Assembly: GCA_018649885.1 (NCBI GenBank)
Contig: JABIHA010000126.1
Span: 62,001-102,238 of the forward strand
DNA length: 40,238 nt
Source of the DNA: Bacteriovoracaceae bacterium
GTDB taxonomy: Bacteria; Bdellovibrionota; Bacteriovoracia; Bacteriovoracales; Bacteriovoracaceae
Direction of reading: 5' to 3'
Shown here: positions 16,900-24,786 of the stretch, piece after piece
Layout: every line of letters starts with the position of its first letter
How positions within the stretch are numbered: the first letter of the stretch is position 1
The notes under the pieces: generated by a model
Told to the model about the DNA's origin: nothing
What the model saw: the letters and a program-made list of their open reading frames with translations, nothing else
Database searches by the model: none
Position numbers and translations under genes: made by a program

Positions 16900-18594
16900 T
16901 TATTTTAGAAAGTTTTCCACTTCTTTTGCACAGCCTAGCTGTAGAACGCGCTCAAGTTGCTTCTGGCACTGAGAGTAATGTAATTCTCTAATCAAGGCCC
17001 GAGTGGAAAGAGTATCACTTGGAGTTACCGACAATTCATCGATGCCCATTCCCACCCAAAGGGGTACCAACTCTTTTTGACAAGCGGCTTCTCCGCACAT
17101 CCCAACCCAAATGCCGGCTTCGTGGGCATTTTGAATGACTAGGTTAATGAGTCTTAAAATCGCTGGATTATAAGGTGTGTAGAGATTCATCAGTTTTTGG
17201 TTCATGCGATCTACTGCTACCGTATACTGAATCAAATCATTAGTTCCAATACTCATAAAGTCTACGTGTTTTGCCAATATATCTGACTCAATTGCAGCAG
17301 ATGGAACTTCTATCATCATTCCAAATTCATAATCTTTTGAAAATTCAGTCCCCTCACCTTCAAGCTCTCTTTCACACTCACTAAATAATTCTTTAACCTG
17401 TAATACTTCTTCAAGACATGAAATCATGGGAACCATTATTTTTAGGTTACCATTCACCCCGGCCCTTAAAAGAGCTCTCAGTTGTGTTTTAAATAATTGA
17501 CTATTTTCGAGACAAAGCCTTACCCCTCGGACTCCCAAAAAAGGATTTTCTTCTTTTTCAAGATTTAGATAATCGACTTGTTTGTCTCCACCAATATCGA
17601 GAGTTCTTATGACCACTGGCTTGGGAGACAAGGAAGACAAAACTTCACTATAAACGCTAAATTGTTCCTGCTCGCTAGGTGCAGTATCAGTATTCATAAA
17701 AAGAAATTCTGTTCTAAAAAGGCCCACTCCCTCAGAGTCATTTTCAACAACAAAACTGACATCAGTGGTAGAGCGTATATTTGAAGCCAGTTCGATTTTT
17801 TTAGAATCGAGGGTCACTGTCTCAAGACCATGGTATTTTTTTAAAAGATCTTTATTCTTGCGGTAGTCAATTTTCTTTTCTTCAAACTCTTTGATGACTG
17901 TCTCATCAGGATTGACATAAACCTCGGCAAAATCACCATCAAAGACCAACAAATCACCAGTCGTGACACTTGAAGAAATATTTCCAAGACCAACCACTGC
18001 TGGAATTTCTAAAGTTCTAGCAATAATAGCGCTATGAGAAGTTCTTCCCCCAATATCTGTTAAAAAGCCAACCACTTTAGATCTGTCCATAACAGCTGTT
18101 TCTGAGGGAGTGATATCCCCCGCAACTAAAATGACTTCGTCTTCTAGTGTAGACAAATCACACAAGGGAATTCCCAACATATTTTTGAGAACCCTTTGAG
18201 AAATATCTTTAACGTCAGCACTTCTGGCCCTCATATATTCATCATCCATCGATTCAAAAACAGCGATGAACTGGTCCGTGACTTCTTGGTAAGCAAATTC
18301 ACTGGAGTATTTATGCTCTAAAATAAGAGTTTTTGTTTGATCTAATACTTCAATGTCTTCAAGTAGCATTTGGTGAGATTCAAAAATTAAGGCGTGATCC
18401 TCACCTAAGTTGATTTTAGATTTTTCAGCAATTTTTTGGAGTTGATCTTTAGAGCAAGCGATAGCACTTTCAAGCCTACTAAGTTGAAGATTTGATGAAT
18501 CCACCGTGAGTCTTTCAACCCTAACAGGTGAATTGTTGATAACTAAGGCACGACCAATGGCCACGCCCGGTGATGCTTTGTGCCCTTTAAGCAT
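16900..18594 (-). CDS. ptsI: PEP-protein phosphotransferase (PTS enzyme I)
   Basis: Phospho-His motif GGRTSHSAIIAR, plus GLFRTEFLF, RTLDIGGDK, EENPFLGVRG, SIGTNDLIQY and GMCGE. Confidence 0.97.
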   Translation of the reverse strand: MLKGHKASPGVAIGRALVINNSPVRVERLTVDSSNLQLSRLESAIACSKDQLQKIAEKSKINLGEDHALIFESHQMLLEDIEVLDQTKTLILEHKYSSEFAYQEVTDQFIAVFESMDDEYMRARSADVKDISQRVLKNMLGIPLCDLSTLEDEVILVAGDITPSETAVMDRSKVVGFLTDIGGRTSHSAIIARTLEIPAVVGLGNISSSVTTGDLLVFDGDFAEVYVNPDETVIKEFEEKKIDYRKNKDLLKKYHGLETVTLDSKKIELASNIRSTTDVSFVVENDSEGVGLFRTEFLFMNTDTAPSEQEQFSVYSEVLSSLSPKPVVIRTLDIGGDKQVDYLNLEKEENPFLGVRGVRLCLENSQLFKTQLRALLRAGVNGNLKIMVPMISCLEEVLQVKELFSECERELEGEGTEFSKDYEFGMMIEVPSAAIESDILAKHVDFMSIGTNDLIQYTVAVDRMNQKLMNLYTPYNPAILRLINLVIQNAHEAGIWVGMCGEAACQKELVPLWVGMGIDELSVTPSDTLSTRALIRELHYSQCQKQLERVLQLGCAKEVENFLK

Positions 18595-18610
18595 GTCTCA
18601 CTCCCCGTTT

Positions 18611-18865
18611 TTATTTTTGATCTATTATAAAGGCCTCAAGAGCTTCGAGTGCATTTTGTTCATCATCACCCGTTGCCGTCAAAGTAATTTCAGTATTTTT
18701 TGTAATTCCCATACTCATGACACTCATGACTGACTTGGCATTACCCTTTTTTCCACCGGCCGCGATAGTGATGTCAGAATTAAACTTTGTTGCTTCGCGC
18801 ACAAAAAGAGCAGCAGGTCTTGCATGAAGCCCCGTTTCATTTTTTATCTCAATTACTTTTTCCAT
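18611..18865 (-). CDS. ptsH: Phosphocarrier protein HPr
   Basis: GLHARPAA (His15 motif) and NAKSVMSVMSMG (Ser46 motif); 84 aa. Confidence 0.97.
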   Translation of the reverse strand: MEKVIEIKNETGLHARPAALFVREATKFNSDITIAAGGKKGNAKSVMSVMSMGITKNTEITLTATGDDEQNALEALEAFIIDQK

Positions 18866-19039
18866 AATTTAATAAATCCTTAAATAAAAAATTTCACACC
18901 TTGCGCCACTCTAACCCTAAAAAGCCCCATCGCCAAAGGCAAAGTACACAATTTTTTAGATTTTGCTGCTTTAGCGTTGGCCACAAAATTCCCTTTTAGG
19001 TATAGCTTGGGGCACATCTAAAATATCGGAGTTATTAAT

Positions 19040-20938
19040 ATGGGAAAACAATTATTTGGGCTACTGCAAAAGATTGGGAAATCTTTAATGCTGCCCGTAT
19101 CAGTATTACCTGTTGCAGGTATCTTACTTGGGGTTGGCGCAGCAAATTTTGGTTGGATGCCCCCAATCGTCTCAAACATCATGGCCCAGTCAGGCGGAGC
19201 TATATTTTCCAACCTGGCCTTAATCTTTGCCATTGGTGTAGCACTTGGACTCACAGAAAATGATGGAGTTGCCTCTCTAGCAGCAGTTGTCGGCTACGTT
19301 GTTCTCCTAGGCACCATGGGTGTTATGGCCTCAGGTGTTTTTGGACTTGAAACCAAAACCATAATGGGAATTAAAACCTTGGAAACGGGAGTTTTCGGAG
19401 GGATCCTGATAGGTTCAGCTGCGGGATTTTTGTTTAATAAATTCTATCGTATATCTCTGCCACCATACCTAGGTTTTTTTGCTGGCAAAAGATTTGTTCC
19501 TATCATTACAAGTTTTGCGGCCATAGCCATGGGAATTGCCCTATCAGTAGTATGGCCTCCAATCCAATCTGGAATTGATTCTTTTTCTCATTGGGCAACT
19601 GCTGGAAACCCAACTCTTATGAGTTTTGTCTACGGTGTAGGAGAAAGAAGCCTTATTCCTTTTGGACTTCACCATATATGGAATGTTCCCTTCTTTTTTG
19701 AGATTGGCTCATTTGCCAACTCAGCTGGAGAAGTTGTTCACGGTGATATCACCCGATTTTTTGCAGGTGATAAAACTGCTGGATTTTTAGGCGGAGCCTT
19801 TTTGTTTAAAATGTTTGGTCTTCCAGCTGCGGCACTTGCCATCTGGCATTCAGCAAAACCTGAAAATAAAAAGGCCGTCGGTGGAGTGATGATTTCAGCT
19901 GCTCTCACTTCTTTTTTAACAGGAATTACAGAGCCAATTGAATTTGCCTTCTTGTTTGTGGCACCACTTCTCTACGCCATTCACGCCCTTCTAGCAGGTG
20001 CTAGTTTTGTCCTGTTTGACTTACTAGGTGCTAAACTGGGAACGACTTTTTCTCATGGATTAATCGACTTTGTTCTCTACTGGAAACTGAGCACTAAGCC
20101 ATGGCTTGTTCTAATCTTTGGACCAATGTACGCAGCTCTCTACTACGGCATCTTTAGAGTGATGATAGCCAAATTTAACTTTCTCACTCCTGGTCGTGAA
20201 GATAAGGTTGAAGCAATTACACTCAAACCAGATCAAATCGGAGGCGAGCTAGTTGCTGCCTTCGGTGGTGCCAGCAATATCGAAAGCCTAGACGCTTGTA
20301 TCACTAGGCTTAGAATCACACTTGTAGATCTTTCTAAAGCCGATAAGGAGCGCATTAAAGCACTTGGTGCAACAGGTGTACTAGTTATTGGAAATAGCAT
20401 GCAGGCCATTTTCGGGACCCTTTCAGATAACTTAAAGACCCAAATGAAAATCTACATGGACCACCAAATTAACAAACCTGCCACTTCTGAAATAGTAGTC
20501 CACGCTCCCATGGCCGGACAAATCCTATCCCTAGAAGAAGTTCCAGATGAAGTTTTCTCTAGCAAAATGATGGGGGAAGGCTTTGCAGTTAAACCTACGG
20601 ACGGCGAAGTGAGATCTCCAGTTACAGGAGTCGTAGCTCACGTATTCCCTACAAAACACGCCATAGGCCTTATCGCCACAGATGGTACTGAAGTTTTAGT
20701 CCACTTTGGTATTGATAGTGTTAAATTAAAAGGTGAAGGAATTACGACCTACGTAAAAGAAGGCCAAGATGTGAAAGCAGGAGATCGTCTCTTAAGTGTT
20801 GATCTCAGCGCCATCGAAAGTAAAATTCCTTCAACTGTGACTCCCATCATTTTTACAAACCTTCCTGCAGGTAAAAAATTCTCACTTAATAAAAAGAATG
20901 TGGATATTAATCAATCTGATTTTTTAACTTGGCAATAA
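19040..20938 (+). CDS. ptsG: PTS glucose-family transporter EIICBA
   Basis: EIIC motifs [25 protein letters not shown] and [39 protein letters not shown]...VHFGIDSV. Confidence 0.93.
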
Positions 20939-20950
20939 AAGAAGCAAGCT

Positions 20951-20982
20951 GAGCGTCTATTTCAATAGGCGCTCTTTTTTTT
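20951..20982 (+). terminator. Rho-independent terminator of ptsG
   Basis: GAGCGTCTATT-TC-AATAGGCGCTC followed by T8. Confidence 0.9.
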
Positions 20983-20983
20983 A

Positions 20984-22036
20984 TTAAGGCTGTAATTCAA
21001 AAGTAATAGGGGATTTCATAACGGCGGCGATTGTCTGTGAAGGATCTACACCTTTATAAAGAACCTTATAAAGACCTACAAAAATTCGTGATTTAATTTG
21101 ATATTTTTGACTTAGAAGGTAGGCAGCTTTAGTTGTTTTATAACCTTCTACAACTGTCCTTTGAGATTTAATAATCTCCTCAGCACTTCTGCCTTTGGCA
21201 ATTTCAAGTCCAAAGAGCTTATTTCGACTCAAACCTCCTGTTGAGGTCAAAATCAAATCTCCCATCCCTGAAAGGCCATAAAATGTTTCTGGTCTAGCAT
21301 TAAAAACAACGCCAAATCGTCTCATCTCAACAATCCCTCTGGTAATCATGGCAGCCCTGGTATTGTGATTATAACCAAGGCCTTCAATAATCCCAGCAGC
21401 AATGGCCAAAATATTTTTAAGAGCACCCCCGAGAAGCACTCCTTTCACATCGTAAGTTGGAAGACATCTAAAATAACTTGTCTGCAACATTTCAGCGACT
21501 TTAAATAAGTTGTAATATGATCTTCCGGCAAGAGAAACAAGTGTGATTTGCTCTTCCAAGATCTCTTTTGCAAAAGATGGCCCAGAGAGAAAACAAAATG
21601 AATCTCTAAACTTTGGAAAATAATCGTAGAACAAATCATCGGGAAGCTCTAATGTATCTGGATCTATCCCTTTAGACAATGATACAAAAGGTATCTCTTT
21701 TTCTAGATAACTTAAAACGAGTTCTTTATTCTCTTCACAAAAATTTTTGATTGCACTTGAAGGCAGTCCAGAAACAACTAGCTCAAGCTCACCGTCAGTT
21801 CTTTTTTCAACCTCATCCCAAGTTAGGGCGGGTACAATATTCTTTGGTAGTTTATGGCCTGGAAGGTAAATCTTGTTTTCACCTTCTAGAAGGCCTCGGT
21901 AATTATCCTCAGATCTAACTTTTAAAATAACCGTTTTAAAGTTACTTGCAAGAACTGAGGCGATTGATGTCCCAAAAGCTCCGGCCCCAATAACTAATGC
22001 TGTATCGTAACTGGGATTTTCTTGTTTAGCTTTTAT
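20984..22036 (-). CDS. gpsA: NAD(P)H-dependent glycerol-3-phosphate dehydrogenase, about 350 aa, apparent ATA start
   Basis: The track ORF (231 aa) has SKG, LSGPSFA, GGALKN, GLSGMGDL and SRN motifs. The same frame is open 119 codons further upstream and includes Rossmann VIGAGAFGTS and ENKIYLPG. AGGAG lies 5 nt before ATA at 22036. Confidence 0.93.
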   Translation of the reverse strand: MKAKQENPSYDTALVIGAGAFGTSIASVLASNFKTVILKVRSEDNYRGLLEGENKIYLPGHKLPKNIVPALTWDEVEKRTDGELELVVSGLPSSAIKNFCEENKELVLSYLEKEIPFVSLSKGIDPDTLELPDDLFYDYFPKFRDSFCFLSGPSFAKEILEEQITLVSLAGRSYYNLFKVAEMLQTSYFRCLPTYDVKGVLLGGALKNILAIAAGIIEGLGYNHNTRAAMITRGIVEMRRFGVVFNARPETFYGLSGMGDLILTSTGGLSRNKLFGLEIAKGRSAEEIIKSQRTVVEGYKTTKAAYLLSQKYQIKSRIFVGLYKVLYKGVDPSQTIAAVMKSPITFELQP

Positions 22037-22050
22037 GGGTGCTCCTGTTG

Positions 22051-22311
22051 TTAAAGTCCCATGACTCCATCAATGCCATTAACTTTTTCATAAAGATTTA
22101 ATACTTCGTCTGAGGAGTTTACCAAAACATGTGCAGTAAAGCTTCTATACTTACCAGTTTTTGAAGCTCTAATAGTCACACGGTGCTCCTTCAAAATGTC
22201 GTTTACTAAGTGTGATGTTTCGCTTTTTACGATACATTTAAAATTGTAGTGTGCCGGCCAGTCATATTGCCGATCAAGAAGTTCCTTGAACTTCTCCCGT
22301 TTTTCCCCCAT
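22051..22311 (-). CDS. DUF493/YbeD family protein
   Basis: WPAHYNFKCIV, SKTGKYRSFT and LYEKV...GVMGL; 86 aa. Confidence 0.85.
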   Translation of the reverse strand: MGEKREKFKELLDRQYDWPAHYNFKCIVKSETSHLVNDILKEHRVTIRASKTGKYRSFTAHVLVNSSDEVLNLYEKVNGIDGVMGL

Positions 22312-22584
22312 GGGCCCTTCCTAAGTTAATAGTCTGCGTTTCGAGTAGTGGAGGATATTTCTCAAATATAAAACTATTAGGCAACAAAAGTAGGCATTTC
22401 AAAATTTCACAACGTTTTCAACAGGTTATTCAGTAAAAAAAATACAACTCAAGACTAGCGCACAGCAAGGCGATGAGGTACAATGACCCCTTGCGTTATT
22501 GCGATCATCGGAATGTAAGCTCAAGTCTATCGCTATCATTAATGGGTTTTATTTTTGATCCTATACTTCGGGGGAGGCAGGGAG

Positions 22585-24786
22585 ATGAAAGCACTAATAC
22601 TACTTCTAGTACTTGTTTTATCGTCACAAGCTTTTGCGGGCACTCGCTTTAACAAGATTGTCTTAAAAAAATCATTGGCCGATAGACGTGAAATTCTAAA
22701 AAAGAAAAAACTATCGAAAGCTGATTTAGATAGTCTTGAAAAATCTAATAAGAAACTTTTTAAAGGCACATTAAAAGTTGCTCCACTGGGAACTATCAGT
22801 AGCCCGAGTTTGTCTACTGGTGGAAGTTCAAAGTCAATGCTGAGAGCAAGTGAAGGCTTTAAACTTCCCGACTTTAAAGAAGATCCCATCAAAGGGGCAA
22901 ATCCTTGGGAGGATACCGATCCACTTTTCAAAGAAATCCTAGGATATCTTCAACCCAATTATGAAGACCTGGGTGTTGCTCAAATTGCAAACCTTCTGTC
23001 ATTTAATCATGATTTTGACCTAGGCCAGGAAAACTTCAATGGCTTTACTTGGTATAAACCAATGGGAACTTTTTCTATTGGAGTCAACAGAGACCTGGCA
23101 CCTGACTTATTCGATGACAAGCGCTGGATTGTAACAGATACATTCCACCTGGTGATTGATGCAAAGACACTAATCTCAAATTTAGTGGAAGAAGACATGA
23201 TAGAGCCCATGACCGATGTTCAAATGGGGGCCTTTGCGGGATTAAGTTTCAAAAGAACTTATACCTATGTTCACTTTGCAAATTCATTTGCAGAGGGACT
23301 GAAAAATGATTTAGATAAGCTTTTTTTCAGCTTCTTAAAATTCAAAGGCCACGGCATCCAGACCCTTAAGCCTTACGAGTATCTCACCAAGCAAGATAGC
23401 TTTGTTGTTAGTGCAGGTGCTGTCGTCTACTCTCCATCATTTTATGGATTCTCAGCAAAAGCAGGGGCACTTTTTAAATTCAATCATGTCTCTAAGGTGC
23501 AGATTCAATCCCTTGGTGACGGTGACTCAAAAGATGCAGATGAAAGACTAAGAGTGGTATTAGAAAAGTCAAACAAGATTACGGCAGCAGCAAAAGCTGA
23601 GGTGATGCTCGACTTTTATGGACTTCTCCAATTGACACTTTTAAGTTTTGATTTAGAGTTTGAGTTTGAAGAAAAACATGACACCTACTTAACATTTAAC
23701 CATGCTGATTTCGAAAAGTTAGAAGACGAAGAAAATGAGGACTGGAAAGAGCTAAAGCAAGTTCTGAGACTCAGAAAAATTGACTTCAAAGCTCTTAAAG
23801 ACAATGTCATCTCACAAAATTACAAAAAATCTATTAAGAGTAAGGCCCAATACATGGCGCTTGTCTTTGGGGGAAATGTCACAAGTAATAGTGCCACCTA
23901 CAATATAATCAAAGACAACCTGGTGACCTCATTTTTAAAAACAAGTATCTCGAATCTTCGCTACGTGGAAGTTCTATGGAGTAAGCTCCTTGGAGGTGTC
24001 ACTAAAGCTATTTTAGGCATGAACCTCTTTGGTTCAAAATACTACAGCTATAAAAGAAGAAATATGTCCCTCGAATATAGAAAGGTTGAGGAGTATATAA
24101 AATCTGACAAGCAAGAATATGTAGATCTAGAAGATAGCCTTTCAATACTTCTTACCCAAGAGTACTACACAGCTGGCACCAAAGGCTTTCTCAATAAAGG
24201 TTACAAAAACGAGCTATTAAAAATGGTGGAGGATTATTCTAATCTGAGCTACCAGGTTTACGAGCTGGTAAAAAATGACACTCTCATAGGTCCGGCCACA
24301 ATTAGTACCAGTATCAGAGTTAGTAGAAGTGGCCTTGATTACTTTAATGCCATGTCAGAGGATGAGGCCTTCTATTATTTGACAACAATATGCAAAACTA
24401 AAAGACCAGAATTTTGGATGGAAATGAAAACCAGAAATAGAGGACTGGGGAGATGGCAAATAGGCAAGGCCGAGGTTTGCATGAAAAAGCTTGGGAAGTA
24501 TTTTAGAAGCTATCATACGGAACTCGCTAAATCGGACAAAATCCCACTAGCAGACCTGGAGAAGTTTACAAAACAACTCCACAAAAGAATAAGGCGTCTT
24601 GATTATATCCTTCTATTCTTTGGCCATGATAATGCTTTTTTTAGTGGAAGCTTTACGGCGAGCACTGGTAAAAACAACCCACTATTTCACACTTTCTTTC
24701 AGGGCGGGCAATTTGAGGGGCTCGGCATGATTCACAACTACCAATACGAGCAGGGGCAACGAGTCCCCGCATCCATAAAGAATTAA
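22585..24786 (+). CDS. Large hypothetical secreted protein
   Basis: GGAGG/GGAG RBS before ATG 22585 and a signal peptide ending QAFA; about 733 aa with a beta-strand-rich middle; no family recognised. Confidence 0.85.
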   Translation: MKALILLLVLVLSSQAFAGTRFNKIVLKKSLADRREILKKKKLSKADLDSLEKSNKKLFKGTLKVAPLGTISSPSLSTGGSSKSMLRASEGFKLPDFKEDPIKGANPWEDTDPLFKEILGYLQPNYEDLGVAQIANLLSFNHDFDLGQENFNGFTWYKPMGTFSIGVNRDLAPDLFDDKRWIVTDTFHLVIDAKTLISNLVEEDMIEPMTDVQMGAFAGLSFKRTYTYVHFANSFAEGLKNDLDKLFFSFLKFKGHGIQTLKPYEYLTKQDSFVVSAGAVVYSPSFYGFSAKAGALFKFNHVSKVQIQSLGDGDSKDADERLRVVLEKSNKITAAAKAEVMLDFYGLLQLTLLSFDLEFEFEEKHDTYLTFNHADFEKLEDEENEDWKELKQVLRLRKIDFKALKDNVISQNYKKSIKSKAQYMALVFGGNVTSNSATYNIIKDNLVTSFLKTSISNLRYVEVLWSKLLGGVTKAILGMNLFGSKYYSYKRRNMSLEYRKVEEYIKSDKQEYVDLEDSLSILLTQEYYTAGTKGFLNKGYKNELLKMVEDYSNLSYQVYELVKNDTLIGPATISTSIRVSRSGLDYFNAMSEDEAFYYLTTICKTKRPEFWMEMKTRNRGLGRWQIGKAEVCMKKLGKYFRSYHTELAKSDKIPLADLEKFTKQLHKRIRRLDYILLFFGHDNAFFSGSFTASTGKNNPLFHTFFQGGQFEGLGMIHNYQYEQGQRVPASIKN

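Follow-up and report, generated by a model that had tools for sequence, protein, structure and literature searches.

An apparent AUA start codon on an intact gpsA gene in one lineage of Bacteriovoracaceae

How does translation begin on a gene for a core enzyme when its 5' end carries none of the usual start codons, and does an unusual start there serve a purpose? Both questions are raised by gpsA, which encodes an enzyme of membrane-lipid precursor synthesis, in the genome of a marine, presumably predatory member of Bacteriovoracaceae (assembly GCA_018649885.1, contig JABIHA010000126.1), of which a stretch of 40,238 nucleotides, here called the window, was analysed. The gpsA frame lies on the minus strand and is open for 361 codons (22069-20984). 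It is limited upstream by an in-frame TGA (22070-22072) within the 3' end of the neighbouring gene, which sets the bound on any possible gpsA start. An earlier note on this DNA had pointed out that no ATG, GTG or TTG precedes the NAD-binding motif, and this is borne out: the first such codon in the frame is a TTG (21679-21677), codon 120 of the gene as delimited below. The same note had described 119 codons as open upstream of the TTG. That figure stands as the distance from an in-frame ATA to the TTG, whereas the frame itself is open for 130 codons counted from the TGA. At the internal rate of this genome, the run of 118 codons after the ATA free of ATG, GTG and TTG has a probability of about 0.0075, which is why the case is so conspicuous.

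The start region is compact. The upstream partner of gpsA, a DUF493 gene (YbeD/HP0495-like; PF04359; 22051-22311, minus strand), ends 14 nt before the ATA (22036-22034, minus strand), and the Shine-Dalgarno (SD) sequence AGGAG (22046-22042) precedes the ATA with a 5-nt spacer, just as the earlier note had it. Only two codons between the TGA and the motif GAGAFG differ from ATG by one base: this ATA, and an ATT abutting the motif. A protein begun at the ATT would lack the first strand, which makes that codon unusable as a start. The SD is unextended and of ordinary strength. Its 5-bp duplex (-6.6 kcal/mol, scored with an assumed anti-SD, the 16S 3' end being absent from the assembly) is matched or surpassed at 39% of 320 unambiguous canonical starts. 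The A-richness of the 15 nt that follow the ATA is equalled by only 3.75% of these 320 starts. Compared with shuffled sequences, RNA structure at the gpsA start is not significant (z -0.92 to 0.07), and a promoter scan returned 4 sites against 4.0 expected. Position, SD, A-rich downstream context and the product already deposited in NCBI/nr make it very likely that the ATA is the start codon of gpsA. An N-terminus supplied by a -1 frameshift from the 3' end of DUF493, or by some other codon, including that of a short out-of-frame ATG ORF (22070-22026), is very improbable. The gpsA frame does overlap the last DUF493 codons in the -1 frame, but the overlap contains no slippery heptamer, the two genes occupy separate frames in the relatives inspected, the SD is correctly spaced for the ATA, and sister proteins have their Met at an equivalent position.

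The surroundings are as follows. A terminator-like hairpin (20951-20974, scored on the plus strand) separates gpsA from a convergent PTS glucose IICBA gene. The latter passes NF008301 and belongs to a PTS cluster (16900-20938) that also includes ptsI-like and, by sequence, HPr-like genes. The presumed predator, whose genome is large (5.4 Mb), has these genes for sugar uptake. Divergent from DUF493, the plus strand (22555-24786) encodes a protein of 733-743 aa that begins like a signal peptide and matches no Pfam or NCBIfam family.

Read from the ATA, gpsA (20984-22036, minus strand) is intact and would encode 350 amino acids. This product scores 297.5 bits with NF000942 (cut-off 257) and 256.8 bits with NF000940 (cut-off 202), and comprises PF01210 (residues 15-171) and PF07479 (196-336), the full domain set of the GpsA family. 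The N-terminal Rossmann domain, with its GxGxxG motif (residues 17-22; 21971-21988), and the C-terminal substrate domain are present together only if translation begins at the ATA; the motif would be absent from a protein started at the first canonical codon. Residues 1-119, obtainable only from a start upstream of the TTG at 21679, keep 26 of 26 conserved columns (those at least 95% conserved among 165 homologs). Residues 120-350 keep 100 of 101, and the single change is common to the sister proteins. The ratio of N-terminal to C-terminal identity is normal (0.80 against a median of 0.79), and 12 solved relatives were found. Family profiles and conserved residues thus point to an NAD(P)H-dependent glycerol-3-phosphate dehydrogenase, a predicted DHAP reductase. 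The gene differs from the rest of its family in the non-canonical start and in an N-terminus 7 residues longer than the mode. A genome-wide search found this to be the only copy, with no second, intact gpsA elsewhere.

In a tree of 65 proteins, this GpsA is sister to P0001, P0123 and P0002 (support 100/99), which are 71-72% identical to it. Its terminal branch, at 0.31 substitutions per site against 0.59 to P0002, is not long. The three sister proteins, whose starts are known as protein only, have their Met 15 codons before the motif, one codon off the homologous position of the ATA (16 codons), the family mode being 9. The N-terminus predicted from the ATA is also that of P0121, an NCBI/nr entry identical to the 350-aa product, so that the ATA start site had been called computationally before; JGI, Logan and ENA have the 231-aa truncation that results from a start at the TTG of codon 120. 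The NCBI pipeline admits ATA starts on homology.

An unusual codon in a metagenome-type assembly of 151 contigs (92% complete) might simply be a consensus error hiding a true G. The earlier note had advised checking base 22034, and the check favours the ATA. Contigs from three DNA runs (X2, X3 and X4, of studies P2, P3 and P4; the possible source, X1, is not among them) cover the position with no other letter and no gap, although studies of one habitat may belong to a single campaign. Two loci from metagenomes, L031 and L082, agree at every position (100% identity over 3477 bp and 2054 bp, respectively), and these may not be independent of the source. All three DNA runs aligned and both metagenome contigs therefore carry ATA, and no contig varies anywhere across the 1.5-kb stretch. 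The run contigs have a depth of just 3.4-7.3, and rare variants do not show in contigs, but with identical letters from three runs of other studies and two metagenome contigs, assembly error is rejected; its residual probability is minute. The RNA run X13 contributed a single 212-bp contig (22114-22325), which covers DUF493 only.

Whether the ATA is an inherited property of gpsA was judged from its relatives. A total of 206 gpsA loci were examined, 196 with the 5' end and 10 without; removal of duplicates and of loci outside 50-99% identity left 147 distinct relatives, which in fact range from 50 to 72% identity. The start is canonical in 146 of them (129 ATG, 12 GTG and 5 TTG, 7-20 codons before the motif), and in the 147th the 5' end of gpsA is cut by a contig end. 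None of the 146 assessable relatives has a non-canonical start, and a family-wide conserved ATH start is rejected. The alignment of gpsA 5' ends that the earlier note had proposed goes largely against its reading, the nearest relatives being just 72% identical. With the truncated protein as query, no relative between 77% and 100% identity came up among the best 8000 candidates scored, and none of the truncated forms in that range that would be a sign of an older ATA. P0128, a protein of 233 aa, came out at 75% identity. This genome is the sole member of its genus. Among kin at up to 72% identity, then, the ATA is restricted to this lineage; given the gap between 77% and 100%, it may have been maintained there over the long term. 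The operon arrangement is conserved: 109 distinct loci, this one among them, have DUF493 upstream of gpsA in the same orientation, and in 25 the stop of the one gene overlaps the start of the other by 4 nt.

Where a non-canonical start is under selection in this family, the pattern is quite unlike that of gpsA. Initiation on AUU, AUC or AUA underlies the autoregulation of IF3 by infC, and pcnB of E. coli likewise has a non-canonical ATH start. With infC as positive control, 28 of 30 loci from the family were read by eye as an SD followed by ATT, ATC or ATA, the other 2 giving no clear reading. In the present genome (G000), infC starts with ATT behind AGGAGGT (L179:290-838, plus strand; C45:12990).

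Private non-canonical starts are not peculiar to gpsA, and form a low background across Bacteriovoracaceae. When the 4149 genes called in this genome were scanned with a coding model, 40 had at least 25 coding-like codons ahead of their first canonical one; gpsA tops this list, and infC is on it too. Several of the 40 have an SD followed by ATA, ATT, ATC or CTG. A conserved protein without Pfam match, present in 27 of 31 genomes, has an apparent ATC start behind AAGGAGGT (L180:239-778, plus strand; G000:C105:24939), and its start is canonical in 26 of 26 kin (by eye). An ABC-transporter ATPase has an apparent ATA start behind GGAGG (L181:248-1024, minus strand; G000:C60:9524). Its first canonical codon comes 35 codons in, at the P-loop, and kin are canonical in 10 of 10 (by eye). 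Further candidates with SD and ATA, ATT or CTG in this genome are C84:65797 and C84:95292 (both plus strand), C115:14204 and C72:68383 (both minus strand), C40:3630 (plus strand) and the L344 ortholog on C24; four of them precede signal-peptide-like stretches (by eye) and one precedes a TetR domain. ATA is followed by AAA in three of the ATA cases, including gpsA, as expected of Met-Lys starts.

The frequency of such starts was compared both ways by a paired ortholog test on 120 scattered 20-kb stretches from seven family genomes, with the coding model as a filter, the unfiltered run consisting mostly of antisense shadow ORFs. An SD with ATH or CTG and no canonical start was found in 5 of 719 genes of kin and in 1 of 544 here (p=0.24). 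Both counts are lower bounds, the kin cases come from assemblies rather than reads, and the kin are not independent. When no SD was required, raw flags numbered 8 in kin and 4 here. The five kin cases, with SD and ATT, ATA or CTG, are L338, L340 and L356 (G012) and L278 and L282 (G019); L333 and L270 in the unfiltered list are similar. The share in kin exceeds the approximately 0.05% of starts annotated as other than ATG, GTG or TTG in model genomes, as given in 10.1101/063800. Relaxed start-codon fidelity throughout this genome finds no support: the enrichment of SD with ATA is not significant genome-wide (1.34x, p=0.09) or in a restricted set (2.1x, p=0.07), the paired test shows no excess here, IF3 motifs, compared by eye, match the ones in kin, and the genome has a normal CAT initiator-type tRNA.

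The best explanation, which we consider probable, is that a lineage-restricted change from AUG to AUA has lowered GpsA output and is tolerated, in an intact gpsA of the conserved DUF493-gpsA operon. An ancestral AUG would have become AUA by one G-to-A transition. AGGAG would still place the 30S subunit, probably with help from ribosomes that terminate on DUF493 14 nt upstream, and the AUA would be decoded inefficiently by fMet-tRNA. This decoding would still be proofread by IF3. Full-length GpsA would be made at a lower level, by analogy at a few to tens of percent of that from AUG, and the drop would be near-neutral or mildly deleterious. Glycerol kinase, as a second route to glycerol-3-phosphate, possibly buffers it; its gene, glpK, was found in this genome as well as in 39 of 40 kin. 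With gpsA retained by 147 of 150 genomes in the family, GpsA matters, and a strong drop is possibly not neutral.

The expectation of reduced translation comes from other bacteria and a phage, where reported yields differ widely. AUA gives 1-2% of AUG in E. coli (10.1101/063800), and about 10%, up to 30%, in S. aureus (PMC13009471); for T4 rIIB a drop of approximately 85% with AUA is cited in PMC5499595. The low E. coli value lends weight to a recent loss of function, in which gpsA would be effectively silenced, glycerol kinase and prey lipids would suffice, and the frame would be too young to have decayed. Such a loss would also fit the glpK and MIP-family channel genes found in this genome and the invariance of the 1.5-kb stretch, as in a young, near-clonal population. 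Against it, gpsA shows no decay and no long branch, and its SD and A-rich context are kept. Just 3 of 150 genomes in the family lack the gene, roughly the number expected from incompleteness; it is not generally dispensable, and the idea that it is dispensable in the family has no support. Finally, a query for glpT (TIGR00712) found no match in this 92%-complete genome. On balance, loss of function is improbable. The query for plsY (PF02660) likewise found no match in the same genome, which contains 11 PF01553 acyltransferases, one of them inside the window (C16:90943-91308).

The remaining alternative is that the AUA was selected. The earlier note had proposed that the AUA throttles translation of the enzyme; a purposeful throttle of the IF3 type is possible but finds no support outside analogy. 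AUA would have been fixed to cut de novo synthesis of glycerol-3-phosphate, or to render that synthesis responsive to IF3, ppGpp or nutrients, the cell being a predator able to salvage the glycerol of its prey. In its favour are the uniform ATA in all contigs examined, the intact gene and the presence of glpK. Precedents exist too: nutrient limitation and ppGpp are reported to hit non-AUG mRNAs harder in vitro (PMC5499595), the AUA of ccpN to respond to medium (PMC13009471), and an ATA on rsbW to have been selected in Listeria (PMC13068326). But the codon recurs in none of the 146 assessable relatives while infC keeps its ATH start across the family; the SD is plain and the start lacks significant structure; glpK occurs family-wide and does not single out this lineage; and private non-canonical starts are a background, scattered over other genes here and in kin. 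The throttle therefore appears unlikely, and in gpsA the ATA resembles a tolerated mutation more than a conserved control switch. A more specific form, in which a switch selected in the predatory lineage would make GpsA sensitive to IF3 and ppGpp and turn it off in the starved attack phase, with prey glycerol used through GlpK instead, is improbable as well. If true, a start-codon switch on a lipid-precursor enzyme would have come from the pool of unannotated private ATH and CTG starts in Bacteriovoracaceae.

The preferred reading, a tolerated change, has its closest counterpart in citZ of S. aureus, where the AUA start occurs in the NCTC 8325 lineage only and a reporter gave about 10% of AUG (PMC13009471). 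Both genes encode central metabolic enzymes with a lineage-confined AUA start, the gpsA ATA being carried by all runs and metagenome contigs aligned and absent outside; they differ in phylum and enzyme, and the start is documented by Ribo-Ret and reporters for citZ (PMC13009471), whereas for gpsA it is deduced from sequence. Listeria monocytogenes rsbW offers a second comparison. There, ATG has changed to ATA or ATT with translation falling in the order ATG > ATA > ATT, start changes are linked to clades, and fewer than 0.3% of core genes have rare or flexible starts (PMC13068326). Both are single-base start-codon changes that follow lineages, with lowered translation established for rsbW and expected by analogy for gpsA. 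However, rsbW encodes a regulator and its change was selected under acid stress (PMC13068326); selection of this kind appears unlikely for gpsA. With infC and with ccpN and cvfC1 of S. aureus, gpsA shares an ATH start behind an SD and the inefficient decoding to be expected of it. Their starts are conserved across relatives, the defining property of that class, which places gpsA outside it, and the SDs of ccpN and cvfC1 are reported to be extended (PMC13009471), unlike the plain AGGAG of gpsA. A literature search, mostly outside subscription journals, returned no match for gpsA with a non-canonical start.

The practical consequence concerns annotation. Gene callers limited to ATG, GTG and TTG cut away the NAD-binding domain of GpsA, as in the 231-aa entries, and on these calls the organism would wrongly look gpsA-defective. 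The gene adds another core enzyme to those with a natural AUA start, as one public annotation already shows, and it would carry greater weight only if the codon were selected or condition-dependent. Private ATH or CTG starts in about 1 in 150-550 conserved genes (about 0.2-0.7%) sampled from this family suggest that starts of this kind are under-counted.

Two further loci touch on glycerol metabolism. In the present genome, an FAD-linked oxidase, a GlpD-like dehydrogenase and diacylglycerol-kinase-like genes stand in a row (L188:1609-5787; G000:C132). They were named from sequence likeness, the DAO-family match alone coming from a search, and the row is possibly a lipid or glycerol salvage operon. 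In a relative (G021:C22:254154-255884), a 659-codon frame, additional to that genome's normal gpsA, contains two GpsA-like stretches (38% and 27% identity).
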